Source of the DNA: a virus
Direction: 5' to 3' (one strand)
IMG/VR virus record: IMGVR_UViG_3300042557_001775
Location: 1 to 64,000 of that record
Length of the DNA stretch: 64,000 bases
Under the pieces are notes generated by a model. That model saw nothing but the letters and a program-made list of their open reading frames with translations, had not been told where the DNA came from and ran no database searches. This document shows positions 3,032 to 32,475 of the stretch, piece after piece; position 1 is the first letter of the stretch, and every line of letters begins with the position of its first letter. A program made the translations under genes and the position numbers.

Positions 3032-3110
3032 CATCAACAAAACCAAGTGTCTGGAGAAGCTGGTCTTATTGTCCCTGCTCCTCGTTTGGATGCTGTTCGC
3101 TCTGCTGTAA
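3021..3110 (+). CDS. Small membrane peptide (29 aa)
   Basis: GGAGG 5 nt before the ATG; hydrophobic C-terminus LVLLSLLLVWMLFALL. Confidence 0.5.
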   Translation: MRSDINKTKCLEKLVLLSLLLVWMLFALL

Positions 3111-3164
3111 TAACCACAACACCCGAATCAGAACGTTCTGATTCACATCCTATCATCTATCACG

Positions 3165-3698
3165 ATGCCTACTAACACCACCAAAACCTACGTCCTTCGT
3201 GGAGGAACTTATCCCAAAGACTCCATCGAAGTTGATACTGAAGCAGGAACCTTCTACCGCTCCGGCGGCGGCTTTGTCCGCAACATCGCGGACTTGAAGC
3301 GTTTCAACGAGGACTTCCGTCCCGCTACGGAAGAAGAACTCAACTACAACCCGCCCTTCCGCAAGGGCCGCTTCTCCATCGAGATGATGGACGAGGACAA
3401 GCCGTTCCTTTGCGTGGACGGCTACACGATGGGCTTTCTCTGGAACGGATGGGCGATGCCCGTCTTCGACAAGGAGAACGCGGAGAAGATCCTGAAGGCG
3501 ACCGATGCCAAATACCGCTACGACGAAGCCACGGACACCTTCTCGTGGATCGTTCTCGACGGCGAGGAAGAAGACTCGACGCAAGGCAGCATCATCCACG
3601 TCGATGGTGTGCCGGTGAAGGTCTACTCCATCGGCGCAGGGTCGTGGACTTGGGACGAGGTGACCGATCCCGAGCAAGTCGGTGACGTGGAGGAGTAG
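3165..3698 (+). CDS. Conserved-looking phage hypothetical protein (177 aa)
   Basis: WNGWAMPVF and YSIGAGSWTW motifs; strong codon bias. Confidence 0.85.
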   Translation: MPTNTTKTYVLRGGTYPKDSIEVDTEAGTFYRSGGGFVRNIADLKRFNEDFRPATEEELNYNPPFRKGRFSIEMMDEDKPFLCVDGYTMGFLWNGWAMPVFDKENAEKILKATDAKYRYDEATDTFSWIVLDGEEEDSTQGSIIHVDGVPVKVYSIGAGSWTWDEVTDPEQVGDVEE

Positions 3699-3803
3699 TG
3701 ACACCGCCTCTCCCACTTTGGGAGGGGCGCAGTCTCGACTCATTCAGGGCCGAGAGAATCAGAACGTTCTGATTCAAACCACAAAACCTAACATGGAGGT
3801 AAC

Positions 3804-4127
3804 ATGAAAAGAAAAAAGTCGTCGCCCACATTCACATACAAAGATTCGGAAAAAGCCGCCGATCTCCTCAACAAGCTGTCGAGCGAGAACCGCTGCAACA
3901 GCAACCCGCATTACCGGCCAGACGCGTTGGATACAACCGACCTCGGCGCCTTGCGTAAGGCGCTCTGGGACGCCGTCCGTCTCCTCGACGACGCGCGCCG
4001 CGAACGCGACACGGAGCATCAACGGCACTGGAAGACGGAAGCGGGGAACATCGAGCGCATCTCCCAACTCGAACGCGAGAGGTCCACGCTGATCGGCGCC
4101 TTCAAGCTAGTTCTGTCGAGCAAATGA
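3804..4127 (+). CDS. Hypothetical coiled-coil protein (107 aa)
   Basis: GGAGG RBS before the ATG; ATGA-type overlap with the next gene. Confidence 0.8.
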   Translation: MKRKKSSPTFTYKDSEKAADLLNKLSSENRCNSNPHYRPDALDTTDLGALRKALWDAVRLLDDARRERDTEHQRHWKTEAGNIERISQLERERSTLIGAFKLVLSSK

Positions 4128-4390
4128 ACTGGCAACAGACGCTTCAGGAAATCAAGGGGGCTTATAAGTGGGAGGAAATCAACGATCACTCTCGCCGCGT
4201 CGTGCTTCGCATGAGTGAATGCGGAAGCGGAAACGGAACCGACTGCGAACCCGATCCGGCTATGCTGAGTTGGGCGCGGGAGACGGGCCGTTCGATCCGC
4301 AAGCAATGGCCGGGCGTCCGCGTGACGCTCGTCACCATCGACGAGTGGGTCTGTGTCGAGGTCGAGATCGACAAAGAGAAAGAGGAGTGA
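4124..4390 (+). CDS. Hypothetical protein (88 aa)
   Basis: Overlapping start and stop with the upstream gene. Confidence 0.75.
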   Translation: MNWQQTLQEIKGAYKWEEINDHSRRVVLRMSECGSGNGTDCEPDPAMLSWARETGRSIRKQWPGVRVTLVTIDEWVCVEVEIDKEKEE

Positions 4391-15157: not shown

Positions 15158-15844
15158 TTATCCTTCTTGGGACGCTGGCGTTTCTGGCTGCTGTTGCGAG
15201 CTACCAGAAGTATTGAGCCAGCACCAAGAGGGAAAGCGGTAACCTTCGCTGGCCTTCTCGGCCACGTCTTGGGGCAGCCACACCTTTGCCTTGAGGTTGC
15301 AGCCGCACACGCCGCAGTTGGCAAGGCTGGCGTCCCGCACTGTTTGGCGCGCTCCGATGATTGAGAAGATCGTCGAGGCCAGATTGGTGCAGACGAAGCA
15401 TCCACTCATCCCCACGTTCAGGGGACAGGACGCGCAGGTGATTGCTCGTCGATTGGCGGTCTCTTCGTCTACCAATCCTTTCTCTCCCAGAGCGGCGCGG
15501 ACCGCCCCCAGAAAGCGCATGACGTCGTCGATGTTGAATTCCTTTTTTAACCCGACATCGCTGAGCAATTCACTTGCCTCAGAGTCGCGAGCTGCGAGTT
15601 CCTCTTCGGACAGTAGCGGCTGGCATCGTCCCAGATCTTGCTTGGCGCAGGTGAAGTTCTCGATGTCCTGGCGCGGGTTGCCGGCGGGCAAATTGTTCGC
15701 CGCCCGGTGATCACTCACCTGCCCCACGACGAGGTCGAGGATGTTGTTCTGGAACCGGCACTCGGTCTCCGGCTGGATGTATTGCCACCCCCCTCTGGGA
15801 AGAAGCGATGCGTCGTTCCATGCGTAGTTGGTCGCGGCGTTCAT
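15158..15844 (-). CDS. Cys-rich protein (DUF6171-like)
   Basis: CASCP, CFVC and CGVCGC..KAKVW motifs; ATGA overlap with the giant gene. Confidence 0.75.
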   Translation of the reverse strand: MNAATNYAWNDASLLPRGGWQYIQPETECRFQNNILDLVVGQVSDHRAANNLPAGNPRQDIENFTCAKQDLGRCQPLLSEEELAARDSEASELLSDVGLKKEFNIDDVMRFLGAVRAALGEKGLVDEETANRRAITCASCPLNVGMSGCFVCTNLASTIFSIIGARQTVRDASLANCGVCGCNLKAKVWLPQDVAEKASEGYRFPSWCWLNTSGSSQQQPETPASQEG

Positions 15845-18800
15845 AGATCCCGCTCCTGTGCTTGCCCGGCGGCCTGTTCGGCCTCTCGCGCCCGCTCTGG
15901 GGCGGCGTTCTTGAGTGACTCTTTGCTTGGCTGGAAGGGCCGGTAAATGCCGGAGGCGATGTCTTCAAGGTCGTCTTTGCCAATGCCGGTGGCTCGAAGG
16001 CGACTAATCGCCGCCGGTTCGGGGAGCCCTAGGCGCCGGGCCGCCATGTATCGACGACGCGCTTCTTGCGTAAGACGGTATTGGGCTTGGTCCGTCAGGT
16101 CGAAGGAGCCGGCCACGGCGCCAGGAGGCTGAGTACCCCGGGAGAGAAGAACGCGGTTGAAAAGAGAGGTGGCGTCGCGCTTGTTTCGCAGAAACTCTGA
16201 AGCACCGAAGCCTAAAGCTTGATCCAGATCCACTTGGCGGATGCGCGTTCCGGTTACGATGGCACCGATCTCTTGCGCCGCGCTAAACTGCTGCCCCGAA
16301 TCGGAGACAACTCCGGCAACACCTAGGCCGCCCCGGTAAATTGTTTTTGCGGTGCCCGGCACGAACGCGCCAGCCAAGTGGGCGCCGATGGCTTGGGCAA
16401 TATTCGTCCCAGAGTCTTGCGGATTGTAGATCCGTCGGCCGCCAGCATCGACGTTGCGGAGGACGCTAGTCACGGCGCCGAAGACAATCTGTTCGCCGAC
16501 GAACGGTTTCATCAATTCGCCGACCATCGCCACCCCGCCATCAGCGATGGCTTCCGGCATACTCTCAGCGCGACCAAAAGCGCGCATCATCGCGACGAAA
16601 GGTTTTTTGAAATACTCATGCCCGTCGAAAAACGAGATGTCGGCGTAGCTGATGGTATTTCCCGTGCGCCCAAACAAGAGTAGCTGGTTATTCTTCTGCC
16701 AGTCTGGAAGGAACTCGCGGAGGTCTTCTTCGTCTTCGGGGGTCATTCCGGCCATCGCGGCAATTCCGCCAGCCGCGACAGAAGGCACTGTCATTGCCAA
16801 ACCGAATCCTCCGATCCGCCGGTAACCGAGACTCCGCAGCTCTGGGTTGCCTGACTTAATTTCGCTGGCCGCCAACCTGAGCGTATTAATCGCTGTGCGA
16901 ACAACTTCGGTGGTGAAAGTAATAAAGGGGGCGACGACTAAGCCGGGTCCCCGCTTGAGTTCCTGCACCCACTGCGGGGCTTCGGAGTAGGTCCAATAGA
17001 TCTCCCGGGAGATCTCGGCAGCTTTCTCATCGAGTTCCGCTTCGGCCATTTTCGGATACGCCCGGCGATAGTTTTCCCGCTCAGTGTAGAAGACAATGGC
17101 CCGCATAATATTGTCCGACATCGCGTAAGTCCCTTGGGCAAAGTCCCAGAGCTTACGGAACGGCTGCGTAATCTTGCGGGTTACTGCGTCTCCGGCTTGC
17201 ACACGAGCGCCGCCCAGTTCGCGGTAGTCCTGCACGAGGTCGTCGATCATGTTGGCGGTCACCGATTCGCCGAACACGCGGAGGCGGATGAGCTTTTCGA
17301 TTTCTTGCCGGGCTTTCTCGTATGCTTTGGGCCCAGATCCGTAATTCTTGAACGCTTCTTGGATCGCTGTCTGGTGCGCCAGCCCGATGGCTTTGCCCGA
17401 AAACGACCCGGGCATCAACGCGCCGGTCGAAAGAAGTTTGAGGTATCCGGCCAAGTAGTTGCGTGTTTGTGCGGCTGCCGAGCCGACAGTCGCCATTGCC
17501 ATCGAGAGGCCCGTAGCTTTGGCGAAAAGCCGCGCCGCGTTTTCCGCATCGCTCTGCGGATACATTTTGTAAAGGGCCTCGACGATGTCGCGGTTGCCCC
17601 AGACTCCGGCCAGCGGGGAGAGACGGGCATTGGTCTCGTCCGAGATTTTGACGAATCCAGTCGGGGCTTCCCAGTCTGCGAAGGCGTCCCGGAAGGCGGT
17701 CTCTGCGGCGGCTCGGTCGGCAGTGCGGAGTATTTCCTCGAAGTTGGCACCGCGCACAACAAACTCGCCAGTATCTTCGTCTTGGCGCATTTCCGGCTGC
17801 GCCGAAAACCATCCTTCCGATAGGCCAAGTTCGCGCAGCTCACGCAGGAATCGGTGGTTGTAGATGAGCGTGGACATCTTGAGGATCGTTTTTCCGTAGG
17901 CCGTTTCCGGATTGTCGTAGACGCCCCAGAGCGCTTGGATTTCGGGGGCAATCGTCCCCCGGCTCATAAAGATCGACAGATTTTTCTGCCCCATGACTCG
18001 GCCAGAGAGCGCTTCGAGCGTCGGGTCCTTCACGGACAACGCTGCTTCGAGGGCGGTTTCTACGTCGGCGGCGGCCACAGATCGGGTCGCCTGGCGCTGG
18101 GCTTCGGCCTCAGAGATGGTCGTCCCAGTCTTGGTAGCGGTGTTCAGGATACGTTCCTTAGCCTTCTCAATAAGCTGCTTCTTTAGGAAGCCACGGGCGC
18201 CGGCCATGACCTTCAGATTCTTCCTCACGCGGTCAGCCCACTTGGGGTTGTCGAAGATGGCGTAGCTTCGGTTGAGGTAGATACCCAGCGTCTCGTCGAT
18301 GGCGATTTCCAAGTCTCCGGAAACGAGCCCTTCGGATTTAAGCCGGCGCTGAAGCACGTTGATATGATCTCGCATCTGTGTCACGAGAACGCGCACATCC
18401 CGGGGAAGCGACTTCAAGGCCGCTGTCTGGCGCTCGCGGAACTTCATCCGATTCTCCCGCCGATAGCGGTCTTTCAGCTCGGCGGCTGCTTCGGGATCAG
18501 TAAGGCGAACTCGCATCATCTCCGCCATCTGTGCTTCGGTGAAGGGGTTGTCTAGATTACCCAGAGCCGTGGTGATCTTGCGCGGGTCGATATTGCGGTC
18601 ACGAACAGCGCGGACGAGGAGCCTGATGTTGGCGTCGGCCCGGCTGGCTTCGGCTTTGATGCCAGCTCGCGAGCTTTGGAACTTGTCGGTGCCGCGAGCG
18701 TCCATGAGGCGATCAACGGCAGAGATAAACTTGCCTTTGACGTAAGTGCCGCCGGTCGGGGTCTTGCTGACCTCGTCCCGGAATACCCGCTCGAACTTCC

Positions 18801-21800
18801 CACCGAGGGAGTCGCTATACCGAATATTCGGGATTTCGTTTAGCTCTTGTTCCGTCATCGAGTCCGGGTCTCGCTTGATCGTCACTTCTGGTGCGGGCGC
18901 ACGCTTTTGCATCCGCTTTTCAACGGCGGCTTGGTTTTTCTCGTTGAACAAATCCCAGTAAACCCCCGAGTCCATCTGCCCACCGCTCGGCGGCCGGAAG
19001 TCGTCACCCTTCGTCTCCCCGTCGATAACGACGGGTTCCGCACGACCGGTCTTTTGGGCCCAAGCAACGAATTCACTACGGCTCATGGCTTGAACCGCTT
19101 TATCGATCTCTGGGTCTGTTTTGCGCGTAGGTTTTGGCGCCGGTGTTCCCTTGGGCTCTGGGACGACTTTAAGTCGAGGCGACTCTCCCGTTGTGTCTGC
19201 GTCTGTTATGTCTGTATCGCTAACCTCGGGGGCAGCTTCTGGATCGGGGTCGGGGGCAGGTGCTTTTTTCTTTTTCTTCGGCGGCTCTTTTGGCGGCTCT
19301 GGGTCCGGCTCGGGTTTTGGCTCAACAGGCGTCGGCGGCTCAGGTTTGGGCTCGATAGCCGGTTCAGCCGGTTGCCGCGCTTTGGCGGCGGCCAACTCCG
19401 AATAAAGCAGATTCAGTTCAGCTTCGATGTCGGCCATCGGAGTGAATGTGTTTCTTCCCAGCTTCTGGGCCGCTTCTCTGACACGAGGGTCTTCGGGCTT
19501 ATTCGTATTCCGCCGCCGCTGTGTTTTGAAGGCGTGTAGTTCATCAAGTCCCTCTAGGATTCCTTCCAGCGCGCGGAGATCCGACTCTTTCTTTGATATA
19601 TCCTGTTGGATTTCATCGACCGACCTACCCGCTTCGGCGGCTTCGGCTTCGGCTGCTTGCTCCAGAAGAATTACTTCTGTACCCCGGGGCAAAACGTTGG
19701 TTCCGGCTACCCCGCTGGTCGGGGCGAAGCCCTGGCGATAGCGGAGCACTCGGCCGCTGGGGAGCCTGATTTCTCTTCGAGCTTCGGCTTGAGCTTGTTG
19801 AGCTTGTTGGCGACGGGTTTCACGGACAGCCGGCCATTCGGCGGCTAAGCGATTGCGGTCTTCGGAAGTGCCCGCTAAGTCCTGCGCTTCGAGCTGCTCC
19901 TCGATGTATTGCGCCTGGGCCACCGCTGCTTCCATTTCGTCGATCATGCGACTGCGGATCAACTCTGGGGCTGCGTCGCCTTCCACGCTGGAGAAGTTCA
20001 GGCGCCATGAATCACTGAAGCCTTCAGCAAGAGGCGAGGAGCTATCGACTTGAACCCCGGTGATGAGGGCCACGATGGAGTTCCAGACATCTTTGAGCGC
20101 CGCGACGAAGTCTCCTTTGAACGTCCCCTTCCCGAATCCCAGAGTGGCAAGCTGCTTGGCGACCTCTGGATTGTGGGTCACCTCTACCACGAATTCTTCG
20201 AGGCTGGTCAGCGAGATGAGCGCCTGGTTGGATTCGGAGGCGGCGATTTCCTGAAGCTGATCGGAGATAATTTTGACTTCCGCGTCGGTCGGTTTTGCCG
20301 GGACGTCGAGGCCCCGGGAGCGGCCAGCCGCGATGATCGACTGCCGCCGGAATCCTTCCAGTCGCTGAATGGCGGCGCGCTCGGCGGAGTTCAGTTCAAC
20401 AAAGCCGTTGAGCTTGGAATTGACGACAACGTGGGAAAGCTCGTGGAGAAGCGTGTCGATTGCGCCGCCCTCGCGGTTGTCGTGGATCGCGTTGGTGTTG
20501 AGATAAATCGAGTAGGCGCCGTCGCTTTCAGCGGCGCGGCCAGACCAAGTGACGGCATTCGACTTGATGATGTCGTCTTCGACTTCGCTTCGAGCTGCGT
20601 CGATCTGGGCGTCCGCTTTGTCCGGGTCGGCGTCAAGCGTGATCTCCTTTTTCTTGCTTCCCAGAGTGAGGGTGATCTTGCCGTCTTTGACTTTGACCCG
20701 GCGGTCAATCTCTTCCTCGGTGAGCGGCTGGCTGTTGAAGTTGCGGCCAAAGCCTGCGATCTGGAGGGAGACGTTATCGTTCCACCCCAAACGCGGCCCC
20801 AGTTTAACAAATGCGGCGGCGATACTGCGGGCCTTGAGGCTCTGGCTTTGGTCGTTGGCGACAGTCTTGAGGAAGGTCTCGATGTCTTTGAACGCGCCCG
20901 ATTGAATGAGCTTCCGGATGTTTTCGCGTTTGATTTTTAGCTTGGCGGCGTTGGATCCTCGGCGGCGAGCCGCTTGTGTCGCAGCCATGCCGGCGAGAAG
21001 CTCCGTGGCGCTTTTGGTCAGCAGCAGGTCCGCGAACGGCTGCGACGTCTGACCTATCACATTGCCGCCCGCCGCCAGCGTCGATTCCGTGGCGCGGCCT
21101 TCGGTCTCGATCGCCGTGACGATGCGGTTGATTTGCTCGTCGGTATAACCTTCGAGGTCTTTGCTGGTTAGGCCAGACCAGGAGGCGACGTAGGCTCGGG
21201 CTGCTCTGGGAGCGACTGTTCGGACGGTGCGGTTGAGAAGACGAGTTCGTGGGCGAGATCCTCGAATCGGTTGAGCGGCGCCACTTGAAACGCTTCCGGA
21301 TCGGTCAGCATCAGGTCCGCTAGGGCTCCGTAATCCCCTTTCGCCAGCCGGATCAGGATCGGGCCCCCCAAGCGATTGGCTAACTCGCGGTGCTCCTCCT
21401 GCGACAGCACCATCGCCAGCAGCCGACAAGCCACGTCCGGAAATGCGGCCTGCATTTCCGCCACGCTTGGCCCATTCGAGGATTTCTCGGTTTTCTTTTT
21501 GTTGGAGGAGTCGCTCGGCTGTTGCACTGGGCTTCCAGTCAGCGGCTTTCTTTCCGATGAGGTTGTTTTCTGGTATTCCATAGAGTGTATTGTAGCTGAC
21601 GTCGCCTTGGATGTAGCGGATAATTTCTTGCAGTCGTGGGTCTAAGTTAGAGAAGTCAACGCGCCCCGTCGCGGTTACGAGTTCTTCGAGGCGAGCAATT
21701 TTGCCCGGGTCTTTGTACCAATAGCGATCCTGGGACGGGTCCCATTCCAGCCCGAAAGTTCCAAGAAAAAGCTTTTGATCTTCAGTGCTGAGTTTGCTCA

Positions 21801-24800
21801 TCAGCTTTTTGTCTTCGCCGACGAGCCTTAACAGTTCAGGACCCACGCTTCCGCCCGGTGTATTTTCTTCTTCAGGCGCGTCGTCAGTGAGTTCGGTCAC
21901 GTTCGCGACGTTTCCGACTTCCAGCTCTTCTTTTTGCGGCGCGATTAGGGTTTCCGGCACAAAGCGTTCGTCGAGGGAAACAGTCGAAGGGGCTTCCTTC
22001 CGCATCCTCCGGATCGACTTGGTGGCCGCGTTAACGGCGGCTTGGGCTACTTTGAACGGGGGAGCCTTGCTGCTCGTGATCCGGGAGACCTTGATAAGGT
22101 CGTCCACAAAACGATCAACTTCGGGAGAGCTGTCCGCGCTAACCACAGTCTTTTTGATCGCGTCATAATCTTTTTTCCCGAGACGTTCCTCCGTTCCGGC
22201 TTTGGCAACTTGGCGCCGCTTTCCTTTTGGAGAAATTACTTTTTCAAGGCTGTCGAGCGTTTCGTTGAAAACCTTTACGGCGTAGGTCTTGTCGGGGTTG
22301 TCTCGAAAACGGGCGGCAATCTTATCACGCAGGACAGCAAGATCGTTAAAGTCAGGCGCGTTTAGTCTTACTCCCAGATCGAGAGCGGCTTTTCGGACTT
22401 TGAGTTCAAGGTCTTCTGTAGGTTTGGGTTTTTTGACTGCGCGGGCAGCCGCCAAGGCCGCCGCAAAGCGACGAGCAATTTCGACCTGCGTCGCTACTGG
22501 AAGAGTGGACGTCCGACCAGAGGCCGCCGCAACGAATTGCTCCATGGTAGACGTCGCAGCCTTTTTCAGAGCCAGGGTGCGGAGGTCATCGGATTCGACA
22601 TTGGTGAGCGGACTGCCACCTCCGACTGTAATGCCCGTTGTTCGTCCCAGAAATGGTTCGAGGCCTTCGAGGAGCTGACGGTAAAGGATGCTGAACGCTT
22701 CGGGCAGCGCGGCCATTCGTCGATTAAGCTGCTGCGCTTCGCGAAGATCTACCGCGCTGCTCGACAAACGAGTTTTCTCGGCCTCAAATCCACGCGCTGG
22801 GTCTTGCTGGTAAATCTTGGTGAAGCTTCCAACGCCACTAAGCTTTTTGAAGCTCAGGGGCCTGTACGCAGACGACTCCCGGTTCGCTTCAAGCCGCTTC
22901 TTGTCGTAAGCGTTGGGGAGCATCTCAAGGCGAGCGGACAGATCGACCACGGCTTTCTCGGCGGCCCGCAAGGCGTTCTGTTCGTTCGGTGCTTCGACGA
23001 GTCCGAGACGCTGCTCCCGGAGCGTGTTGAGCCGTCCTTCGATGGTCGCTCGTTCTTCTGCGAGTTTTCCGGCAGACTGATTGACGCGCTTTGTCCGCCC
23101 AGCGATCGCTCTTTTGATACGCTCAGCGTCGCTCCTAATCTGGGTTAGCTCGTCAGTTCTTGATTTTCGCTCTGCTTTGAGTGATGCGAGCCGTGTTTCT
23201 GCTTCGCGCAATTGAGCTTCGTAGTTAAGGCCTCCGAGCCCTTCGCGAACGAGTTGAGACGCGGCGAAGCGGCCTGTCGGCTGTTTTTTGACGGCTTCGC
23301 GCAGCTCGCGAATTTCCTTTTCGGCGTTGGTAATCGCGTTAGACGAAAGTTCACCGAAGAGTTTTCCGCCTTTGCCTTCGGGCGCGTTCAGTTCTTGCCG
23401 CCGCGCTGCAAGGGCCGTCAAACGTTCGTTAAGTGTTTCTAGGGTGCTTTCTCCGTCGATGCGCGTCTCAAGCGCGGATAATTGCAGGGCTCTCGACTGG
23501 ACATTCTTACGGGCTTCGGCCGCCCGACTGCTAACGGCGGCCTGCTCCTGCCGTAGTTCGGCTTCACGATTCGGTGTCGCGTTTTGCAACGCGGCTTCTA
23601 TCTGTTCGAGCTGCGCCTTTGCATCAGCAAGGGTTTGCCGATCTTTGTCTTGGGCCTTCCGAAGCGCGTTGAGCTGGCTGGTTAAGCCTCGCGTATTTCC
23701 AGCTTTTTCGGGAGCGCGTGCCGCCGATCCGATTTCAGCCAACGCCATTTCGGCATCTCTAATCTCGGCGTCCAGACGATCACGCTCCGCGAGGGCGGCG
23801 TTGTTACCCCGCAGTAAGGCGTCAAAAGTTTTACGCGCTTTATCGCGGTTTTGGATCGCCCCCGTGAGCGCAGTTTGAGTTTGTTGGATTTCTGCGTCTT
23901 CTTCGGCGTCGAGGCGGGCAAGCGCTTCTCGGTCTTGCTCTCCAGTCGTCCGTTGCTGGTCTCGGCCGGCTTTATTTTTCGGCGGAGATACGTTGGTGAG
24001 GGTGAAACTAAGCGGATTCTGCGCGAGAACAGGCGTCCCTTCTGGGACGAAGCGGCCAGTTTCGTCACGCACACCAGCTCCAGTTTTGACCGGTGCGTCA
24101 TACGAGCCTTGGCTGACTTCGACGGGTGAGGATTTCCCGTCAACGCCGCGCCAAGTGACGGACACCACTGTAGGAGCAATTCTTCCGCGAAACAGCCGGC
24201 GCTCGATTTTGACGTCCGGATCGCCTTGCAGCAGAGATACCAATTCTGGGGTTGCGGGCACCACGTCACCAGCGTTCAGATGCCGTGCGATGTCGGTTAT
24301 GGCGCGGCGCTTCGCCACGTTTCGGTTGTTAGTTGCGAGATTAAACTGCGTGAGAGCTTCGTTGTAAGCGCCGAGCTGCGCTGAATTAGCTTCGTCTTCC
24401 CTAGCGCGGACAACTTCGTCGGTGCGTTGCCGGGCGATGGTTGCGGCGTCGCGGAGCTTTTGGTCTCTCCGTTCTTTAGTCTCGGGCACCGCTTCCAATT
24501 CACCGGCTTCGTTGGTGAAGAAGCCTCCGGCAAACACTTTGGCTTGTTCCTCCTCAAAGAGTCTTTCGTAAATCGCGGTGCGTTCTTCGTTCGTCAGGGA
24601 TTGCCGCTGCGGTTTTGTGGGGCGAACCGGAGCATTACCTTTCGGCGTCTGGATAACTGGCGTTAAACGAGCGACAATCGGGCGGCCATTATTCCATGCG
24701 GGGCCGGCCGGCTCGGAAGACAGATCGCTCGCTGGCGCGGGTTGAGGCCCGAATGGAGTTCGCATCTCGGCTAGGAGCGACGTCAGTTCGAGAGCCCGGG

Positions 24801-27477
24801 CGGACAAGGCTTCTCGCTGCGCTTGACCCGCTTTGCCGATGCCCAACTGGATCTTTGGCGTTGCGGCGAATACTCCGCGATCACTGTCTGCGAGCTTCTG
24901 CCGGACTTCGTTTAGCTCTTTTGTGTATTGCTCGCGCAGAGCTTTTCTTTCCGGAGTCTCATCTACTGCGGCCTGCTGCGGGTCCCGGGCGGCCCCTACG
25001 CCTGAAGCTTTGCTCGGCGCAGCGTCGCCCGAAACGTAATCTATTTTGTAGTTTCGGGGCTCGTCTCTTGTGCCGTCGGAAATGGAAACTGTGGTGGGGA
25101 GTCGAACGATTGAGTTCTTCAGCGCGGCGAGCTTTTGTTTTGCTTCGACGAGCGCGGTGGAAGCGGGGTCGAGTGTTTGCGAAAGTTCAGCAACCTCTTG
25201 CTCCGCTGCCGCGATTTCTGCGGCGTTGCCACTGGCTCCAGACGGCACGAAAGCATCTCCGTCTTGAGTTCCGGCGATCCCGAGCACCTCATTCAATTCT
25301 TCGGGAGTCTTCGCCGCGTTGATCGCCGCATTAAATTCGTCTTCTTGGGTGCGAAGATCTTCGAGAGGCCGGTTCGCTATGAGGTCGAACTGACTCGGCT
25401 TAAGCTCAAACCGATTGTTAGTGACGTCGTCTTGAAAAATGGCATTGCCGCTTTTGCGAAGGCCCACAAATCGAGCATTCCGAGTTCCTCCTCGGCCATC
25501 AGCGATGCTTACTTCGGCGCCCGAGTTCAAAGTTCCTACTCGATCGGTGAGGACGCTGCCTTCCAACGCTTTGCGATTTTCGGCTTCTTGAGCTTCGCGT
25601 GCGCCCCGGGAGTTCGCCAGCTCACTGACGAACGTGGCCGCCCCCATGGCTTGGCGAGCGGCGGTCGTCGGCGCACGACTCAACCGCTCACGAAGCGCGG
25701 CAACTGCCGTCGCTTTTTGTTCAGCTTCTTTGGCGCTTAAGGTTTGATCGGTAAGCTCCTTTTCAAGGCGGGCGATCTCGGCTTCTGCCTCCTGCTTCTT
25801 GAGCGTCGCGTCGGCCTCGGAAAAATCAAACTGCCCCGAACCAAGAAGCACGAAGCCTGAAGCCCCTGGCATGTATGCGGGATCGGCCTCATGCGTTTCC
25901 TTGATGGGTTTTTGCCGAGGGGCGAGTTCCGGCTCGGCTTCTCCTTCGACCCCCGCTTCGCGCTGCGATTTGAAATACTCCAGCTCCTTGGCTAGGGCGG
26001 CACCTTCTATGGTTCCCAGATCCAAGGGCGCTACGCGGACGCCGCCGAGATCAACCGCTGCGCCGACACGCCCGTCATACTCCGTCTCTGGATCGATGGC
26101 CGCCCATCCGGCGCTCTCGTTGAAGCGGAACTTGAGGCCGTCCCTTTCGATCGGCTCCGACCACGCTCCCAGAATGTCCTGCGGGGTTTCGGGGGCGGCA
26201 GGAGTTTCTTGGTCTTGGTCGTCCCCACCGATTCCGTCTATCGCTTGCTTGGTGCGAGGTGCGAGGTTTTCCAACACGCCGCCACCGCCGCCAAGCATAC
26301 CGCCGATTGTGGCGCCAGCCGCTGCCGCGATCATACGCTCCCTCCCCGCCCCAGGAGCGTTGAGCCGCTCTTCGATAGTCTGGTTCGGGTCGGCCATGCC
26401 AACGGCGGCTTGTTCGAGGCCGGTCTGGAGATACTCGGTCGCGCCCTCCAGCGGCGCACCGATGGCCGCCCCTCTGGCCGCTCCAGCGGCAACGCGCCCG
26501 GGGAACTTCAAATTCAGCGGCTTGCTTTCGACGCCAAACATCTTGTTGACGCCCGGAATCTTCGAAGCCACGAATCCCTCAAACAAAGTATCCAGCGCGG
26601 CGCCGGGGACCGATGTGGCGAGAGCCGCCGTGACTGCTTCGCTGCCACCCTCCCCGGTCTCATCCCGGATCTGGCCGTAAGTCCCGCCGGAAATCTGTCC
26701 CAAATTGGCGAGGTACGCGCCGGTCATGGCGCCGTAGCGGGTTCCGCTGGAAACGGCCCCCTGAACTCCCCGCGCAGCATCATCGACAGTCCCCGCAAGT
26801 CCACGGGCGGTTCCTTCGGCGGCCTTGGCCCCCACCGATCGGGTCAGGAGGCCCCGGGTAATCTCTTCGGCGACTTTGCGCTCGGCTTCGTCGGCCACTT
26901 CTCCGGCGGCCCGACGCTTGGCGATCTGGTTGATGACCATCCGCTTGGCGAGCGATTTACCGACCGCGCCGCCGACGCCGCCTCCCAGAATCGAGGTCAA
27001 AAGCTGGGGGAGCTGTTCGCCGAGGAGGCCGACGGCATAGCGGCCGGCATCGCCCAAGTCTTCGATATCTTCAAAAGGATCCTGCACCGAAGCGGCCTGC
27101 GTGGCCGCCTCTTCCATGGCCCGACGATAATTGTCGTAGCCCCAATCGGCGGCCCGCTCGATACCAAGTCCGTCGGCGGCCAGCCCCAAGAAGCCGTAAG
27201 CCAGTCCTTCGAGCTGGTCCCCGCCCCGGCTCAATCCGACAGAGAACTCTTCTCCCAGAGTACGGGGGACGGCTTCGAATCTGGTTCCGACGTTTAACCC
27301 TCGGGAGCTGTCGGCCAACGAAGGCAAAAGACTCTTGGCCGACTCCTGCTCCTGCTCGGGCGCAGATTCTTGGGGTATCGCCAGCTCGGCAGGTTCATCT
27401 AAAGACACCCGCCGCTGGTTTAACCCTTGAACCTTTTCTTCGTCTTCTTGCTCCAGAAGATAGTCGTACCAAGCCAT
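15841..27477 (-). CDS. Giant internal virion/ejection protein, large polyvalent type (3878 aa)
   Basis: Last of the ejection-gene cluster; Gly/Ala-rich hydrophobic N-terminal region, long coiled coils, zincin motif LLHELSH...EEFVVE and a Pro/Glu/Lys linker. Confidence 0.85.
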   Translation of the reverse strand: MAWYDYLLEQEDEEKVQGLNQRRVSLDEPAELAIPQESAPEQEQESAKSLLPSLADSSRGLNVGTRFEAVPRTLGEEFSVGLSRGGDQLEGLAYGFLGLAADGLGIERAADWGYDNYRRAMEEAATQAASVQDPFEDIEDLGDAGRYAVGLLGEQLPQLLTSILGGGVGGAVGKSLAKRMVINQIAKRRAAGEVADEAERKVAEEITRGLLTRSVGAKAAEGTARGLAGTVDDAARGVQGAVSSGTRYGAMTGAYLANLGQISGGTYGQIRDETGEGGSEAVTAALATSVPGAALDTLFEGFVASKIPGVNKMFGVESKPLNLKFPGRVAAGAARGAAIGAPLEGATEYLQTGLEQAAVGMADPNQTIEERLNAPGAGRERMIAAAAGATIGGMLGGGGGVLENLAPRTKQAIDGIGGDDQDQETPAAPETPQDILGAWSEPIERDGLKFRFNESAGWAAIDPETEYDGRVGAAVDLGGVRVAPLDLGTIEGAALAKELEYFKSQREAGVEGEAEPELAPRQKPIKETHEADPAYMPGASGFVLLGSGQFDFSEADATLKKQEAEAEIARLEKELTDQTLSAKEAEQKATAVAALRERLSRAPTTAARQAMGAATFVSELANSRGAREAQEAENRKALEGSVLTDRVGTLNSGAEVSIADGRGGTRNARFVGLRKSGNAIFQDDVTNNRFELKPSQFDLIANRPLEDLRTQEDEFNAAINAAKTPEELNEVLGIAGTQDGDAFVPSGASGNAAEIAAAEQEVAELSQTLDPASTALVEAKQKLAALKNSIVRLPTTVSISDGTRDEPRNYKIDYVSGDAAPSKASGVGAARDPQQAAVDETPERKALREQYTKELNEVRQKLADSDRGVFAATPKIQLGIGKAGQAQREALSARALELTSLLAEMRTPFGPQPAPASDLSSEPAGPAWNNGRPIVARLTPVIQTPKGNAPVRPTKPQRQSLTNEERTAIYERLFEEEQAKVFAGGFFTNEAGELEAVPETKERRDQKLRDAATIARQRTDEVVRAREDEANSAQLGAYNEALTQFNLATNNRNVAKRRAITDIARHLNAGDVVPATPELVSLLQGDPDVKIERRLFRGRIAPTVVSVTWRGVDGKSSPVEVSQGSYDAPVKTGAGVRDETGRFVPEGTPVLAQNPLSFTLTNVSPPKNKAGRDQQRTTGEQDREALARLDAEEDAEIQQTQTALTGAIQNRDKARKTFDALLRGNNAALAERDRLDAEIRDAEMALAEIGSAARAPEKAGNTRGLTSQLNALRKAQDKDRQTLADAKAQLEQIEAALQNATPNREAELRQEQAAVSSRAAEARKNVQSRALQLSALETRIDGESTLETLNERLTALAARRQELNAPEGKGGKLFGELSSNAITNAEKEIRELREAVKKQPTGRFAASQLVREGLGGLNYEAQLREAETRLASLKAERKSRTDELTQIRSDAERIKRAIAGRTKRVNQSAGKLAEERATIEGRLNTLREQRLGLVEAPNEQNALRAAEKAVVDLSARLEMLPNAYDKKRLEANRESSAYRPLSFKKLSGVGSFTKIYQQDPARGFEAEKTRLSSSAVDLREAQQLNRRMAALPEAFSILYRQLLEGLEPFLGRTTGITVGGGSPLTNVESDDLRTLALKKAATSTMEQFVAAASGRTSTLPVATQVEIARRFAAALAAARAVKKPKPTEDLELKVRKAALDLGVRLNAPDFNDLAVLRDKIAARFRDNPDKTYAVKVFNETLDSLEKVISPKGKRRQVAKAGTEERLGKKDYDAIKKTVVSADSSPEVDRFVDDLIKVSRITSSKAPPFKVAQAAVNAATKSIRRMRKEAPSTVSLDERFVPETLIAPQKEELEVGNVANVTELTDDAPEEENTPGGSVGPELLRLVGEDKKLMSKLSTEDQKLFLGTFGLEWDPSQDRYWYKDPGKIARLEELVTATGRVDFSNLDPRLQEIIRYIQGDVSYNTLYGIPENNLIGKKAADWKPSATAERLLQQKENREILEWAKRGGNAGRISGRGLSAAGDGAVAGGAPRVSQSLGGPDPDPAGERGLRSPSGPDADRSGSVSSGAAQPIRGSRPRTRLLNRTVRTVAPRAARAYVASWSGLTSKDLEGYTDEQINRIVTAIETEGRATESTLAAGGNVIGQTSQPFADLLLTKSATELLAGMAATQAARRRGSNAAKLKIKRENIRKLIQSGAFKDIETFLKTVANDQSQSLKARSIAAAFVKLGPRLGWNDNVSLQIAGFGRNFNSQPLTEEEIDRRVKVKDGKITLTLGSKKKEITLDADPDKADAQIDAARSEVEDDIIKSNAVTWSGRAAESDGAYSIYLNTNAIHDNREGGAIDTLLHELSHVVVNSKLNGFVELNSAERAAIQRLEGFRRQSIIAAGRSRGLDVPAKPTDAEVKIISDQLQEIAASESNQALISLTSLEEFVVEVTHNPEVAKQLATLGFGKGTFKGDFVAALKDVWNSIVALITGVQVDSSSPLAEGFSDSWRLNFSSVEGDAAPELIRSRMIDEMEAAVAQAQYIEEQLEAQDLAGTSEDRNRLAAEWPAVRETRRQQAQQAQAEARREIRLPSGRVLRYRQGFAPTSGVAGTNVLPRGTEVILLEQAAEAEAAEAGRSVDEIQQDISKKESDLRALEGILEGLDELHAFKTQRRRNTNKPEDPRVREAAQKLGRNTFTPMADIEAELNLLYSELAAAKARQPAEPAIEPKPEPPTPVEPKPEPDPEPPKEPPKKKKKAPAPDPDPEAAPEVSDTDITDADTTGESPRLKVVPEPKGTPAPKPTRKTDPEIDKAVQAMSRSEFVAWAQKTGRAEPVVIDGETKGDDFRPPSGGQMDSGVYWDLFNEKNQAAVEKRMQKRAPAPEVTIKRDPDSMTEQELNEIPNIRYSDSLGGKFERVFRDEVSKTPTGGTYVKGKFISAVDRLMDARGTDKFQSSRAGIKAEASRADANIRLLVRAVRDRNIDPRKITTALGNLDNPFTEAQMAEMMRVRLTDPEAAAELKDRYRRENRMKFRERQTAALKSLPRDVRVLVTQMRDHINVLQRRLKSEGLVSGDLEIAIDETLGIYLNRSYAIFDNPKWADRVRKNLKVMAGARGFLKKQLIEKAKERILNTATKTGTTISEAEAQRQATRSVAAADVETALEAALSVKDPTLEALSGRVMGQKNLSIFMSRGTIAPEIQALWGVYDNPETAYGKTILKMSTLIYNHRFLRELRELGLSEGWFSAQPEMRQDEDTGEFVVRGANFEEILRTADRAAAETAFRDAFADWEAPTGFVKISDETNARLSPLAGVWGNRDIVEALYKMYPQSDAENAARLFAKATGLSMAMATVGSAAAQTRNYLAGYLKLLSTGALMPGSFSGKAIGLAHQTAIQEAFKNYGSGPKAYEKARQEIEKLIRLRVFGESVTANMIDDLVQDYRELGGARVQAGDAVTRKITQPFRKLWDFAQGTYAMSDNIMRAIVFYTERENYRRAYPKMAEAELDEKAAEISREIYWTYSEAPQWVQELKRGPGLVVAPFITFTTEVVRTAINTLRLAASEIKSGNPELRSLGYRRIGGFGLAMTVPSVAAGGIAAMAGMTPEDEEDLREFLPDWQKNNQLLLFGRTGNTISYADISFFDGHEYFKKPFVAMMRAFGRAESMPEAIADGGVAMVGELMKPFVGEQIVFGAVTSVLRNVDAGGRRIYNPQDSGTNIAQAIGAHLAGAFVPGTAKTIYRGGLGVAGVVSDSGQQFSAAQEIGAIVTGTRIRQVDLDQALGFGASEFLRNKRDATSLFNRVLLSRGTQPPGAVAGSFDLTDQAQYRLTQEARRRYMAARRLGLPEPAAISRLRATGIGKDDLEDIASGIYRPFQPSKESLKNAAPERAREAEQAAGQAQERDL
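21168..21581 (-). CDS. Putative nested out-of-frame gene inside the giant gene (137 aa)
   Basis: Globular-looking core with GC3-rich codons where the main frame becomes G/R/S/P-rich; TACAAT 7 nt upstream of the ATG. Confidence 0.6.
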   Translation of the reverse strand: MEYQKTTSSERKPLTGSPVQQPSDSSNKKKTEKSSNGPSVAEMQAAFPDVACRLLAMVLSQEEHRELANRLGGPILIRLAKGDYGALADLMLTDPEAFQVAPLNRFEDLAHELVFSTAPSEQSLPEQPEPTSPPGLA

Positions 27478-27500: not shown

Positions 27501-28529
27501 TTATGATGCAACTGGCCGGGACTTCCAGTAATCCAGATAATCGTCAAACGTCGGCTCGGGCTTCGGGTCGGCGGTTACGAACTTGGGAATCGCGTTGATG
27601 GCTTGAATCCTGACTTCGCCGTTAGAGTCCATGAGTGCCCGGAGTCCGCGTTTTGCCTCCTTTGAGAACCCCTTAAAACGCTCTTCCTTGGGCTTGTTCC
27701 ACTCTTGGCTAAGGTAGTCTTGAAACTGGGACGGCGCTTCAAACCGTTGGCCGTATAGCACATAGGCGTCCCGTTGGATTTTACCTAACGCGTTCGCCAT
27801 CTCTCGGGGGCGCCCAATGTGTCCATAACCGGATGTTGCGTCGGGACTGTTGTCAGTAAAATGGTGGCCGACTTCGTGTTCCAATGTTTCTCTGACGTCA
27901 CTGCGGGGGTTGGCTGCCGCTGCTTCTAGGTCCGGCGGCTCCATGTTATTCTTGTCTAAATATTGCGCGACGCTCTTTCCGAGCGGCTCTTGCGAATAGT
28001 TTTTGCTTTTAGCCGCAACAAATTCAGGACTGTTTAACCTAATTCCAGTTTCGGGGTTGTAGTGCGCGGCCTTCTGCACTTTTTCTCCGGTCTCCACTTT
28101 TACAAATACGGGCGCGTCAATTTTGTCGTAGTCGATGGTATACGCGTCTCCGTAGTATCGGCCTTTAGGGACATCCATCGCCCCTTGATTTTGATCTTCT
28201 GCCCACGCACGCGGGTTCCGGAATCCGGCGGGCTGCCTTTTCATAAAGGGCAAAGCCGCTTCTGGATTCTCTTTGTCGAACGCTTTCGCCTTGGCAATTT
28301 CTGCGTCAAGGTTTTCGCCGTAGTACGGCGAAAGCACCTCGCGGCCAGTAACCATCGACGCGGCTCCGGCTTCGAGATTCGGCATCGGGCCGTATTTCTC
28401 AAGCAGCTCCGCGTCGGACAGGGTGGAGATCGGCTGCCCTTTGATCTCGCTCAAGTTCCGGACACCCGGCCCACTTCGCCCCGGGAGATACGGGTCAACG
28501 GCTTCCAGAATTTCGTCGTACCAAGCCAT
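27501..28529 (-). CDS. Zincin-like (HExxH) putative internal virion protein (342 aa)
   Basis: LEHEVGHH followed by a downstream PREM glutamate; N-terminus shared with the giant protein. Confidence 0.75.
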   Translation of the reverse strand: MAWYDEILEAVDPYLPGRSGPGVRNLSEIKGQPISTLSDAELLEKYGPMPNLEAGAASMVTGREVLSPYYGENLDAEIAKAKAFDKENPEAALPFMKRQPAGFRNPRAWAEDQNQGAMDVPKGRYYGDAYTIDYDKIDAPVFVKVETGEKVQKAAHYNPETGIRLNSPEFVAAKSKNYSQEPLGKSVAQYLDKNNMEPPDLEAAAANPRSDVRETLEHEVGHHFTDNSPDATSGYGHIGRPREMANALGKIQRDAYVLYGQRFEAPSQFQDYLSQEWNKPKEERFKGFSKEAKRGLRALMDSNGEVRIQAINAIPKFVTADPKPEPTFDDYLDYWKSRPVAS

Positions 28530-30483: not shown

Positions 30484-31983
30484 TTAAATATAACTGAATG
30501 ATTTATTTCCAACCCCATACTGACCGGCTGGAGTGTAATAATACTGACCGACACCCCACCGCGACATCTCAGAAGGGTCTTTTCCCCACGCTTTAGCCGC
30601 GCCGGTAGCCGATCCATAAAAACCTGAATTACGGTCTAAGCCTCCCGTCACCATCGAGCTTAACGAGCTTCCGACACCTAGGATATCGTTGAAGCTAAAG
30701 CGACTTTGGGGTGCCGAGAAGCTCCTGCTGTAGTCTCCGCCGCCTCCACTGCCGCCAAGCGATCCCCCAAGGCTCGCCCCTAATGAAGCACCTGCGGCAG
30801 TGCCTAACCCAGGGGCCACGAAAGTGCCTACTAAACCCCCTGCGACAGCTCCGCCGAGTGACGCGATAGAAGATAGCCCCGCTGCGTATTGCCGGTTCTT
30901 GTCCGCTTCTACTTGAAGTTGATTTTGCCAAGACGTGTTGTTGATGCTCTGTCTCCAGTCACCCCACGTTGTAGCAGCCGCGACAGACTGTCTTGACGCG
31001 GAGTCGTACGCAGAGGTCTGCATGGCGCCGCTTTTTAGTATCGCGTCTAGCCCGCCCAAGTATCGTGTCTTGCCCATGTCGCTTTGCGACACAAGAACAT
31101 CCCGTGCGACGCCTTGCCGGGCCCCTAAAATTGTATTCAAGCCAGTCTGTTGATTCCGAACGTATGCTTGTTGCGCTCCAAATATATTTTCGTTGTTTCG
31201 CTGGTTTATTGTTAGCGCGTCTTTACTGCTTATCCCCAGGTAGTCACTGGCCTGCGCTGCCGTGGTTTGCAATCCGGATACTTGGGTGTCGTAGATAAGT
31301 TTCGCCCAATTCTGGGCGCTTTGGTCTGCCTGCATCGCAAGATCCAGCGAAGTGAGGCCTAAGTTACGAGCGGCCAACGCCGATCCCGCTTGGCTTCCAG
31401 CCCCAAGTCCTCCCTGAAGAGCCCCGTACGCGCTTTGCCGTTGCACGGAAGCCATCACGTCGGCGGGCAAACGCCCTTGTAACATCTCAAGGTTGTTCCG
31501 GCTAATCTGCTCTTGCTGAGCTAACTGATACGGGTTTGCCCGGTCGATCATGCTTTGCCGAGTACGGAACGCAGACTCCGTCAACTTGTCGGCAAAACTA
31601 ATAAAATTGTCTGCATTCTTTAGGTTGAAATCGACTGCCTCTTGGCCTGAGCGCGTAACAAGGCCGTCTGAACGAGTTTTGTATTCGTCGATATAGCCTT
31701 TCTCTTCTGCGTAGAGTGCCGGCAGCGCGTCTCGAAAAGACGCGATGGCATCTTGCATCGATGTAGAATATTCGGTGTTGGCGGACTCGATAAGAGAGCG
31801 GTAGTCACCAGCTCTTTCTTGCTCTAGCGTAACAACCTCCTTGGCCGCAGCGATACTTTTATCGACGTACGCTTTGATCGCGGCCATCGATTTCCCGTAC
31901 GCATTGTCCGCAAGCTGAATTCCTTTTTGCTCCCGTTCCCGGTTCACCTTCCCCGGATCGCCTTTGCTGCCGCCCATGCTCAT
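30484..31983 (-). CDS. Putative DNA pilot/ejection protein
   Basis: MSMGGSKG start at an ATGA overlap; Gln/Ala helices; C-terminal glycine-zipper GGAVAGGLVG..APGLGTAAGASLG. Confidence 0.7.
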   Translation of the reverse strand: MSMGGSKGDPGKVNREREQKGIQLADNAYGKSMAAIKAYVDKSIAAAKEVVTLEQERAGDYRSLIESANTEYSTSMQDAIASFRDALPALYAEEKGYIDEYKTRSDGLVTRSGQEAVDFNLKNADNFISFADKLTESAFRTRQSMIDRANPYQLAQQEQISRNNLEMLQGRLPADVMASVQRQSAYGALQGGLGAGSQAGSALAARNLGLTSLDLAMQADQSAQNWAKLIYDTQVSGLQTTAAQASDYLGISSKDALTINQRNNENIFGAQQAYVRNQQTGLNTILGARQGVARDVLVSQSDMGKTRYLGGLDAILKSGAMQTSAYDSASRQSVAAATTWGDWRQSINNTSWQNQLQVEADKNRQYAAGLSSIASLGGAVAGGLVGTFVAPGLGTAAGASLGASLGGSLGGSGGGGDYSRSFSAPQSRFSFNDILGVGSSLSSMVTGGLDRNSGFYGSATGAAKAWGKDPSEMSRWGVGQYYYTPAGQYGVGNKSFSYI

Positions 31984-32453
31984 GCGGCCTCCTTCCCGAT
32001 CCACTCAATTGGATCGTCATTCGCGGTGAAGAATTTCCACATTTCAAGGCTCGACTCCCGGGCGGCTTCGGGGCCTCGAAGGATCATCACGATCATCGGA
32101 GCCATCAGGAGATGGACGTCCCGGAGCGTCAACGCATAGGCGCGCCCTCTTGACCCTTCGCGCTCCAGTTCCACCGAATCCCGCCAAGCGATGATGGCTT
32201 GGAAAATTAGCGGCATCAGCTTCGCTTTGTGCGCGTTGAAAAACTCGTTGGTCGGCAGCTCGACCAAAGCACCCCAGAAAGTCAGGTCGATTTCTTCGCG
32301 GGGCGGCAACTCGTCCCCGTCCACGAGGGCATCCCAGAGTTCGGAAATGCCGCCGAGCGTCGTGATAAAGTCGAGTGCGCTTCGGTCTCCGCCAAACCAT
32401 TCAAGCAGTTTGGCGTCTCGGGCGTCTCTCCATTCAGGTGAATCGTAGATCAT
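31980..32453 (-). CDS. Conserved phage protein, possible isoprenoid-synthase-like fold (157 aa)
   Basis: WDALVDGD and LPTNEFF motifs; all-helical appearance. Confidence 0.7.
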   Translation of the reverse strand: MIYDSPEWRDARDAKLLEWFGGDRSALDFITTLGGISELWDALVDGDELPPREEIDLTFWGALVELPTNEFFNAHKAKLMPLIFQAIIAWRDSVELEREGSRGRAYALTLRDVHLLMAPMIVMILRGPEAARESSLEMWKFFTANDDPIEWIGKEAA

Positions 32454-32466
32454 GGGTTAGCAGGTT

Positions 32467-32475
32467 ATTATATCA
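32467..32475 (-). promoter_or_regulatory. Extended -10 promoter candidate upstream of the ejection cluster
   Basis: TG-A-TATAAT, 13 nt before the ATG at 32453. Confidence 0.5.

Follow-up and report, generated by a model that had tools for sequence, protein, structure and literature searches.

Does a giant phage gene harbor, in a second reading frame, another gene with a protein product of its own? This question is raised by the minus strand of the 64,000-nucleotide stretch of DNA analyzed here, i.e., positions 1 to 64,000 of IMG/VR record IMGVR_UViG_3300042557_001775, which comes from an uncultured phage and is referred to below as the window. A reading made from the letters of this DNA (the sequence-only reading) had claimed that a hidden gene lies out of frame within a giant virion protein gene, that this gene has its own leaderless promoter, and that it encodes an immunity or inhibitor protein. 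Our data confirmed that the nested gene exceeds chance on comparative evidence, namely, conservation in nine of nine giant genes, homologs elsewhere, constraint at silent sites, the pattern of natural variants, and the fold. We consider it likely that positions 21168 to 21581 of the minus strand are a genuine protein-coding gene in the +1 frame of the giant gene, with a core that is folded and under selection and over which the giant frame reads a linker. The claim of a protein-coding nested gene thus stood, but that of the promoter is unproven. The parts of the locus on which the argument rests are as follows.

15841 to 27477, minus strand: giant virion protein open reading frame (ORF; P0002), 3878 amino acids, the C-terminal part of which matches phrog_22602, "virion structural protein."
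21168 to 21581, minus strand: nested ORF (P0001), 137 amino acids plus a TAA stop, in the +1 frame relative to the giant frame.
21465 to 21581, minus strand: nested residues 1 to 39, a hydrophilic leader, poorly conserved and predicted to be disordered.
21234 to 21464, minus strand: nested residues 40 to 116, the conserved all-helical core, predicted to form seven short helices with a predicted local distance difference test score (pLDDT) of 86 to 95; the constraint sits in the nested frame.
21171 to 21233, minus strand: nested residues 117 to 137, an acidic Ser/Pro-rich tail, predicted to be disordered.
21217 to 21462, minus strand: giant amino acids 2006 to 2087, a Gly/Arg/Pro/Ser/Ala-rich linker across the nested core, predicted as coil (pLDDT 32 to 37), consisting to 65% to 74% of G, P, S, R, A, and T and with BLOSUM conservation near zero between distant homologs.

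The nested ORF lies wholly inside the giant ORF, on the same strand and at a +1 offset, and both ORFs were found where the sequence-only reading had placed them, with the readings it had given. At its leader, the nested ORF runs over the last part of the upstream giant-frame segment, where the coding signal is that of the giant frame; at its Ser/Pro tail, it covers the beginning of the conserved downstream giant domain (TVRxxxRxAxRxYV motif). Over positions 21417 to 21238, the guanine-plus-cytosine (GC) content at the three codon positions of the giant frame shifts from 0.66, 0.47, and 0.64, the values for the whole gene, to 0.78, 0.75, and 0.35, so that the coding periodicity there follows the +1 frame and the nested codons end in G or C. 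Such G/C-ending codons, as well as the linker-like character of the giant frame, had been noticed from the letters, and both observations were borne out, the latter by the composition and the predicted coil listed above. The length of the nested open stretch (157 codons), on the other hand, is within chance, being the fourth longest in the +1 frame of the giant gene (197, 182, 181, and 157); since three longer open +1 stretches exist in this gene, ORF length was rejected as evidence for a nested gene.

We examined nine giant genes, i.e., that of the window and its homologs from IMG/VR (L001 to L004, L009, L010, L047, and L048), which span 3159 to 3931 codons from stop to stop. As L047 and L048 count as one lineage, the nine genes represent eight lineages; L046, identical to L047 over the nested region, is cut by the contig end and is not among them. 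In all nine genes, the giant frame runs through, and the homologous place holds an open +1 frame that reaches a stop shortly after the peptide it encodes. The nested peptide is recognizably conserved in each of them (motif PEL..R.P..L..R...GD..V..DL....PE.F...P....ED.AF..LL). Stops in the nested frame of homologs, for which the sequence-only reading had suggested looking, are absent from the core in every case. Over the nested stretch, the giant proteins show 22% to 57% identity to that of the window, and across the nested core the giant-frame reading can barely be aligned between distant members. The same Gly/Arg/Pro/Ser stretch occurs in the giant frame of two predicted giant homologs, P0003 (98% identity) and P0004 (45%). 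When identical nucleotide columns were translated in both frames, identity was higher in the nested frame for 17 of 21 pairs, and the mean BLOSUM62 score was higher in the nested than in the giant frame for all 21 (1.49 versus 0.60).

Further loci were sought with several other queries. Among deposited phages, tblastn with P0001 returned a single record at an expectation value (E) of 6, which is not significant, and blastn with positions 20400 to 22400 returned none. A scan of viral contigs with a 680-amino-acid piece from the window itself confirmed 0 of 80 stretches, a scan of genome contigs with a subset alignment (A4) confirmed 0 of 3, and a search with the giant-frame alignment recovered only L001 to L004 again.

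The nested protein also has homologs outside the giant genes. A profile built from five nested peptides matched 28 of 1.84 billion representative proteins at an E of ≤1e-3 and 10 at an E of ≤1e-10, nearly all of them 52 to 153 amino acids long. Identity to the nested protein of the window is 61% for L001 and 22% to 40% among the 25 other members, and the family is acidic (median isoelectric point [pI], 4.9; median length, 110 amino acids). One matched protein, P0005, is encoded on a 70.8-kb contig and starts at the same ATG as the nested ORF of L001. In L011 (positions 1879 to 2298, plus strand), the domain occurs as a free-standing 139-amino-acid copy next to a secreted Sel1-repeat protein, and in L012 (positions 2076 to 4376, plus strand), it is fused in frame within a 767-amino-acid Sel1-repeat protein, beside a type I/N6 DNA methylase gene; both contexts look bacterial and lack a giant gene. 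The domain furthermore forms the N terminus of BspA-type LRR_5 proteins (P0008, P0009, P0036, and P0037, on contigs of up to 22 kb), where it is about 80% like the nested protein of L001. The gene-called and free-standing homologs begin with Met plus a similar short hydrophilic leader, and P0037 begins with MQN, as does the nested ORF of L001. These homologs in unrelated contexts argue that the nested product is a real protein module rather than a by-product of the giant frame.

A search of viral contigs with P0008 found no locus. The corresponding search with P0037 gave 32 loci in genome contigs and 1 in viral contigs, which were BspA-type LRR genes matched, in all but four cases, from residue 70 or later and thus beyond most of the small domain. 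The family tree is mostly unresolved (13 of 21 inner branches are open), so that no direction of origin can be read from it; it hints that the free and the Sel1-fused forms may be one derived clade. For the 27 members compared with known families, Pfam-A gave one subthreshold AraC_N match (E of 0.0055; 16.7 bits, compared to a cutoff of 24.2), PHROGs gave two single-member matches that are not significant (E of 0.002 to 0.005), and PADLOC and NCBIfam matched 0 of 27 each. As far as these comparisons reach, the small acidic helical proteins are an undescribed family, with no match to a known family or fold. In a separate observation, a group of proteins of 195 to 212 amino acids (P0007 and P0033 to P0035; up to five contigs each, the longest 5.6 kb) belongs to an L003-like lineage in which the small ORF continues in frame into about 100 amino acids resembling downstream giant sequence before reaching a stop; these may be decayed or captured fragments of a giant gene.

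Substitutions place the constraint in the nested frame. Divergence between the window and L001, computed in windows of 40 codons, is about 0.7 at third positions of the giant frame in the flanks (gene mean, 0.57) and drops to 0.12 to 0.30 over giant amino acids 1996 to 2096. Third-position divergence falls below first-position divergence only at the overlap and in one saturated region (amino acids 1355 to 1442), which bears indirectly on the remark in the sequence-only reading that the remaining shifted ORFs of this gene do not resemble proteins. The two sequences share blocks of very high nucleotide identity, including an identical run of 35 nucleotides. Natural variation points the same way. 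Near-identical pieces of positions 20600 to 22400 were found in contigs of all four lake or freshwater metagenome runs compared (four studies), which leave positions 21149 to 21209 uncovered; altogether, 20 runs of 17 studies are listed as containing the sequence, and one of these may be its source. The independent lake metagenome contigs align over positions 21222 to 21601 without any indel, and one of them, from run X7, covers positions 21222 to 21571 and carries the following variants.

21267 to 21348, minus strand: four natural variants (21267, 21270, 21321, and 21348) in an independent lake metagenome contig, each silent in the nested frame and amino acid changing in the giant frame.

All four listed differences thus fall on position 1 of a giant codon, which is position 3 of a nested codon, and the giant protein changes are I>V, P>S, S>G, and A>T; P0003 differs from the window in this stretch at just two sites, both of them among these four. 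Between L047 and L048, the 351-nucleotide nested ORF holds 7 single-nucleotide polymorphisms, compared to 203 in 1500 nucleotides upstream and 99 in about 1550 nucleotides downstream. Two of the three changes in the core are silent in the nested frame, and both changes in the tail are silent in the giant frame. Judged by these substitutions, selection is acting on the nested frame across the core, and both frames are kept open in the homologs, with purifying selection on the nested one, as in an embedded gene.

Structure prediction separates the two frames in the same manner. The AlphaFold2 model of the nested protein, made from an alignment of 27 rows, contains a 77-residue domain of seven short helices (residues 40 to 116) between disordered termini, and the model of the giant frame, made from nine rows and with a mean pLDDT of 49, shows amino acids 2006 to 2087 as coil between helical flanks that reach 64 to 79. 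Taken together, the two models indicate that the ordered part of each frame overlies the disordered part of the other. The frame that is ordered and more widely distributed is thus the nested one, whereas the giant frame reads as coil here and has the low mean BLOSUM62 score, as expected of an ordered-versus-disordered overprinting pair. Foldseek searches with the nested fold gave nothing at an E of ≤1e-3 (best E of 8.6 in PDB and 2.0 in BFVD), a sequence profile search of PDB reached a best E of 0.19, and ESM Atlas held no usable match.

How might the nested frame be translated? Two features at its start bear on this.

21552 to 21611, minus strand: 60-nucleotide segment centered on the nested ATG, a putative internal translation initiation region, with a minimum free energy of −4.4 kcal/mol (gene mean, −14.9), among the least-structured 0.9% of the segments of the giant gene.
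21589 to 21594, minus strand: TACAAT hexamer, 7 nucleotides before the ATG, formed by the Tyr and Asn codons of the conserved SYNxLY motif in the giant frame; a putative promoter element.

All nine loci have an ATG in the interval from the preceding +1 stop to the first conserved helix; the expectation by chance is 0.27 to 0.45 per gene (product over the first seven loci, 1.1e-3). The region from −30 to +30 around this ATG has a minimum free energy of −0.3 to −8.3 kcal/mol, compared to gene means near −15, and in each of the nine loci it is within the least-structured 0.1% to 5.6% of the segments of its own giant gene. For real gene starts of the window (n = 27), the median is −6.5, compared to −14.9 for the background. 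As a control, the first ATGs of other long off-frame ORFs (n = 32) have a median percentile of 0.56, with only 3% of them at or below 0.056. The conserved ATG and its start-like unstructured surroundings favor internal translation initiation, and the start region may be an internal, structure-dependent initiation site, for which these nine loci provide indirect support. We think it likely that ribosomes would start independently at the first nested ATG on the late mRNA of the giant gene itself, the start region being unstructured and without a Shine-Dalgarno sequence, as are the starts of many genes of this phage. The nested gene may have an internal promoter as well but would not need one.

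The sequence-only reading had instead proposed that the nested gene is transcribed from a leaderless promoter. The TACAAT box on which this proposal was built is indeed present (positions 21594 to 21589, minus strand), followed by 7 nucleotides and the ATG at 21581, and comparable hexamers precede the nested ATG in L001 (TATAAT, 7 nucleotides) and in L047 and L048 (TAAAAT, 9 nucleotides). A TANNNT hexamer at a distance of 7 to 9 nucleotides is thus found in only three of the eight lineages, with nothing comparable in the other five, and in the window and L001 it consists of the Tyr-Asn codons of the conserved giant-frame SYNxLY (Ser-Tyr-Asn). A consensus promoter scan moreover found no two-hexamer promoter on the minus strand. 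Because the hexamer occurs in so few lineages and derives from conserved codons, the leaderless promoter is unproven. It is not absurd, since a TATAAT box 13 nucleotides before the ATG of two other genes of this phage places short leaders within its repertoire and makes them plausible here, but on the sequence data it would be unnecessary.

The box at these two other genes is a separate observation. Two exact copies of TATAATAACCTG (positions 32461 to 32472 and 55223 to 55234, both minus strand), each followed by 3 nucleotides and ACCCATG, place a perfect −10-like box 13 nucleotides before the starts of the genes at 31980 to 32453 and 52873 to 55215. At up to two mismatches, TATAATAACCTG has four matches compared to 1.0 expected, which makes it a candidate phage promoter with a very short leader. 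On the opposite strand, there are one terminator-like hairpin with a T run and one sigma-70-like site (positions 21476 to 21490 and 21596 to 21624, plus strand), consensus matches that are at or near the chance level.

Several points weigh against a genuine nested gene or its independent start. A Shine-Dalgarno sequence is absent before the nested ATG in all nine loci, and several loci offer GTG, TTG, or later ATG alternatives, so that the start cannot be pinned to one codon. The AT-rich codons of the conserved giant-frame motif may account for part of the low RNA structure, and none of the 20 listed runs containing the sequence is an RNA run. The two-frame comparison relied on a nested-frame alignment and is thereby biased toward that frame, and the X7 contig has a depth of 3.3, at which single differences may be errors, except for the two shared with P0003. 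Since the model of the giant frame is of low confidence overall, it shows a disordered linker only weakly. Finally, the frame equivalent to the giant frame is also free of stops over the domain in L011 and L012, where there is no giant gene; openness of the giant frame was for this reason rejected as independent evidence.

The alternatives differ mainly in how the +1 frame would come to be read, if it is read at all. Giant-frame ribosomes might slip by +1 before the core in a programmed manner, giving a product of about 2100 amino acids that combines the N-terminal half of the giant protein with the helical domain as an alternative C terminus, beside the full-length protein. This would be in keeping with a nested frame that shares the strand of the giant gene and is closed by a stop in every locus, with the first 7 to 50 nested residues, which are poorly conserved and disordered and so need not be translated, and with runs of Arg codons just before the core in the giant frame, e.g., cga cga in L003. 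We nevertheless regard it as unlikely. No motif is common to seven loci in the 30 codons before the core (although +1 slips can lack clear motifs), and no Rfam element was found in positions 20900 to 21900. In L003, moreover, a shift would have to fall within just 14 codons, the first of which is ATG, after three stops in the +1 frame. A shift would also leave aside the ATG in its start-like unstructured surroundings in nine of nine loci and the Met plus similar leader with which the free-standing and gene-called homologs start, including the MQN shared by P0037 and L001. That the helical domain really belongs to the giant frame and that the window carries two compensating indels, through sequencing error or recent mutation, has next to no probability. 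The periodicity does follow the +1 frame while the giant frame looks noncoding, and in the cluster of 195- to 212-amino-acid proteins the nested frame continues directly into giant sequence from downstream, but the same frame layout with a +1 stop recurs in nine of nine giant genes from different metagenomes, the independent contigs over positions 21222 to 21601 are free of indels, and P0003 and P0004 read the same linker; a compensated frameshift pair or sequencing error was rejected on these grounds. Equally improbable is that the conservation reflects a nucleic acid element, be it an RNA structure or a DNA site, or chance, with no second protein. The blocks of high nucleotide identity between the window and L001, such as the 35-nucleotide run, would suit such an element, but amino acid conservation persists at 22% to 40% identity and with nested-silent changes, homologs occur in unrelated gene contexts, the fold is confident, and there is no Rfam match; this explanation is already contradicted by the family homologs, the fold, and the nested-silent polymorphisms and was likewise rejected.

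For a nested gene translated from its own ATG, the question of function follows. The gene sits in the late structural module, with the large terminase at 56290 to 58065, and translation from the giant mRNA, if it occurs, would produce the nested protein alongside the giant one. Elsewhere, the domain is found attached to protein-binding repeats, LRR_5 and Sel1. Our best guess, held with low confidence, is that the nested protein acts as a small acidic partner or helper of the ejected giant protein and is produced when and where the latter is; such a helper could be an assembly or holding factor or a copackaged module. Weighing against this suggestion, it derives solely from gene position, acidity, and fusion partners. 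A complex prediction of the nested core with giant amino acids 2075 to 2480 had a score of 0.00, with no answer returned. The sequence-only reading had seen in the product of a leaderless-promoter gene an immunity or inhibitor protein that neutralizes the adjacent giant domain and protects lysogens from superinfection. This role found no support, and we judge it very unlikely. The protein is small and acidic, as an inhibitor might be, TACAAT, TATAAT, or TAAAAT precedes the ATG in the window, L001, and L047/L048, and the TATAAT boxes before two other ATGs make very short leaders plausible in this phage; the absence of the hexamer from five of eight lineages, its explanation by the SYNxLY codons, and the lack of a two-hexamer promoter on the minus strand speak against the transcriptional part. 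As to the immunity part, none of the 27 members has a PADLOC match, a nonexhaustive scan of ORFs showed no integrase or repressor, and the supposed target upstream of the linker (positions 21600 to 22750) is the poorly conserved side among the homologs and the least conserved part of the neighborhood. LRR- or Sel1-fused homologs, moreover, do not fit a dedicated antidote.

Downstream of the linker, the giant protein is more conserved, as listed here.

20038 to 21255, minus strand: conserved downstream giant-frame domain (giant amino acids 2075 to 2480), with an H..HE..H motif invariant in seven of seven sequences.

This domain contains HELSH (positions 20431 to 20445, minus strand; giant amino acids 2345 to 2349), just downstream of the linker, in the H..HE..H context that is invariant in the seven giant proteins. 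The HELSH region looks like a zinc metallopeptidase motif, and the domain has no Pfam or PDB match. The 342-amino-acid gene just upstream of the giant gene (positions 27501 to 28529, minus strand) opens with the same 12 nucleotides as the giant gene, so that MAWYD..LE is common to both proteins (8 of 12 residues), and the giant homologs also begin with MAW(Y/I/F)D; a common N-terminal signal or start region is one possible reading. The 342-amino-acid protein itself carries an HEVGH motif. The giant protein of the window shows mosaic similarity to P0004/L001: it is almost identical to P0004 over N-terminal residues of about 80 to 400 and 45% identical in the overlap region, which suggests recombination between lineages.

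How, then, could such an arrangement have arisen? One origin, to which we give about even chances, is that two virion genes were fused in frame across a preexisting small gene whose −1 frame happens to lack stops. The stop-free giant-equivalent frame over the domain in L011 and L012 indicates that such a fusion would be easy. The giant frame would then stay open as a poorly conserved, disordered Gly/Arg/Pro/Ser linker between the variable upstream region and the conserved, HExxH-containing downstream domain. A simple route would be the loss of an upstream stop, so that a gene reads on across its small neighbor, as discussed for embedded spanins (PMC6139136). A search for shorter forms of the giant gene returned only P0043, which starts at giant amino acid 2140 on a 13-kb contig, where a split form and a cut one are indistinguishable. 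Going further, and rather improbably, the giant gene may have been built by fusing two genes across the small gene, with the stop-free −1 frame as linker and the small gene surviving ("reverse overprinting"), and the product of the latter may be a portable docking module that loads itself, or the attached LRR or Sel1 cargo in relatives, onto the giant ejected protein, so as to be packaged and to reach the host cell along with the DNA.

The closest known counterpart is Rz1 in Rz, an embedded +1 gene of phages (PMC6139136). In the lambda Rz/Rz1 spanins, too, one phage gene contains another in full, on the same strand and at a +1 offset; Rz1 is regularly overlooked by gene callers, a proposed origin is the loss of an upstream stop and reading on across the small gene, and the Rz and Rz1 products act together (PMC6139136). 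Unlike Rz1, the nested protein (P0001, which begins with MEYQKTTSSERKPLTG) has no hydrophobic signal peptide or lipobox and is predicted to be a folded, cytoplasmic-type helical domain. Its host gene, unlike Rz, encodes a 3878-amino-acid virion protein rather than an inner membrane spanin, and the overlap covers a linker rather than a functional coiled coil. Identity as an o-spanin of the Rz1 family was rejected, there being no lipobox Cys signal and the host gene encoding a virion structural protein.

Other systems share single aspects with this locus. Overprinted genes are known from small viruses, such as phiX174, with E within D and B within A. There, as here, a single stretch of DNA encodes an ordered and a disordered protein in different frames, and silent-site variation is reduced in the overlap. 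In the usual case of overprinting, the embedded frame is young, disordered, and restricted to a lineage, whereas in the giant gene the embedded frame is the ordered one and has homologs outside phages, and the host frame is disordered and poorly conserved, i.e., the usual polarity of overprinting is reversed. Furthermore, these are double-stranded DNA phages of about 70 kb, for which, in contrast to small viruses, genome compression is no obvious driver. In lambda gpG/gpGT and T7 gp10A/10B, programmed frameshift pairs arise by −1 slips at conserved slippery sites, with no start codon needed. They resemble the present case in that an alternative frame on the same strand within a structural gene module gives a second product, and they differ from it in that here the frame is +1, no slip motif is shared, and a conserved ATG lies in a start-like context. 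Type III secretion chaperones and phage tail or fiber assembly chaperones are small, acidic, dedicated chaperones encoded beside a large secreted or ejected client. The functional analogy would lie in a length of about 100 to 140 amino acids, an acidic pI, a helical nature, and a position with the client gene; no sequence similarity or, in Foldseek searches of PDB and BFVD at an E of ≤1e-3, fold similarity to them was found.

Embedded +1 genes are thus already known in phages, and what is new here is an undescribed protein family. A literature search on genes that overlap phage virion genes or use an alternative frame within them brought up only general papers on overlapping genes, with none describing this case. 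Because long same-strand overlaps are forbidden by standard gene callers, genes of this kind are invisible in phage and metagenome annotation. The present one, found from sequence alone, is an unusually clean case of dual coding, combining deeply diverged homologs, population variants, and a confident fold. Its polarity appears opposite to that of textbook overprinting, with an embedded frame that is old and ordered and a huge host gene that threads a linker through it. The small protein family and its fold are tied to the giant ejected virion proteins of abundant lake phages and are also found fused to LRR and Sel1 repeats. The locus further offers a concrete case of possible internal, Shine-Dalgarno-independent initiation inside a very long mRNA, and it suggests a route by which giant phage proteins may grow, namely, by gene fusion across an intervening gene that is not lost in the process.

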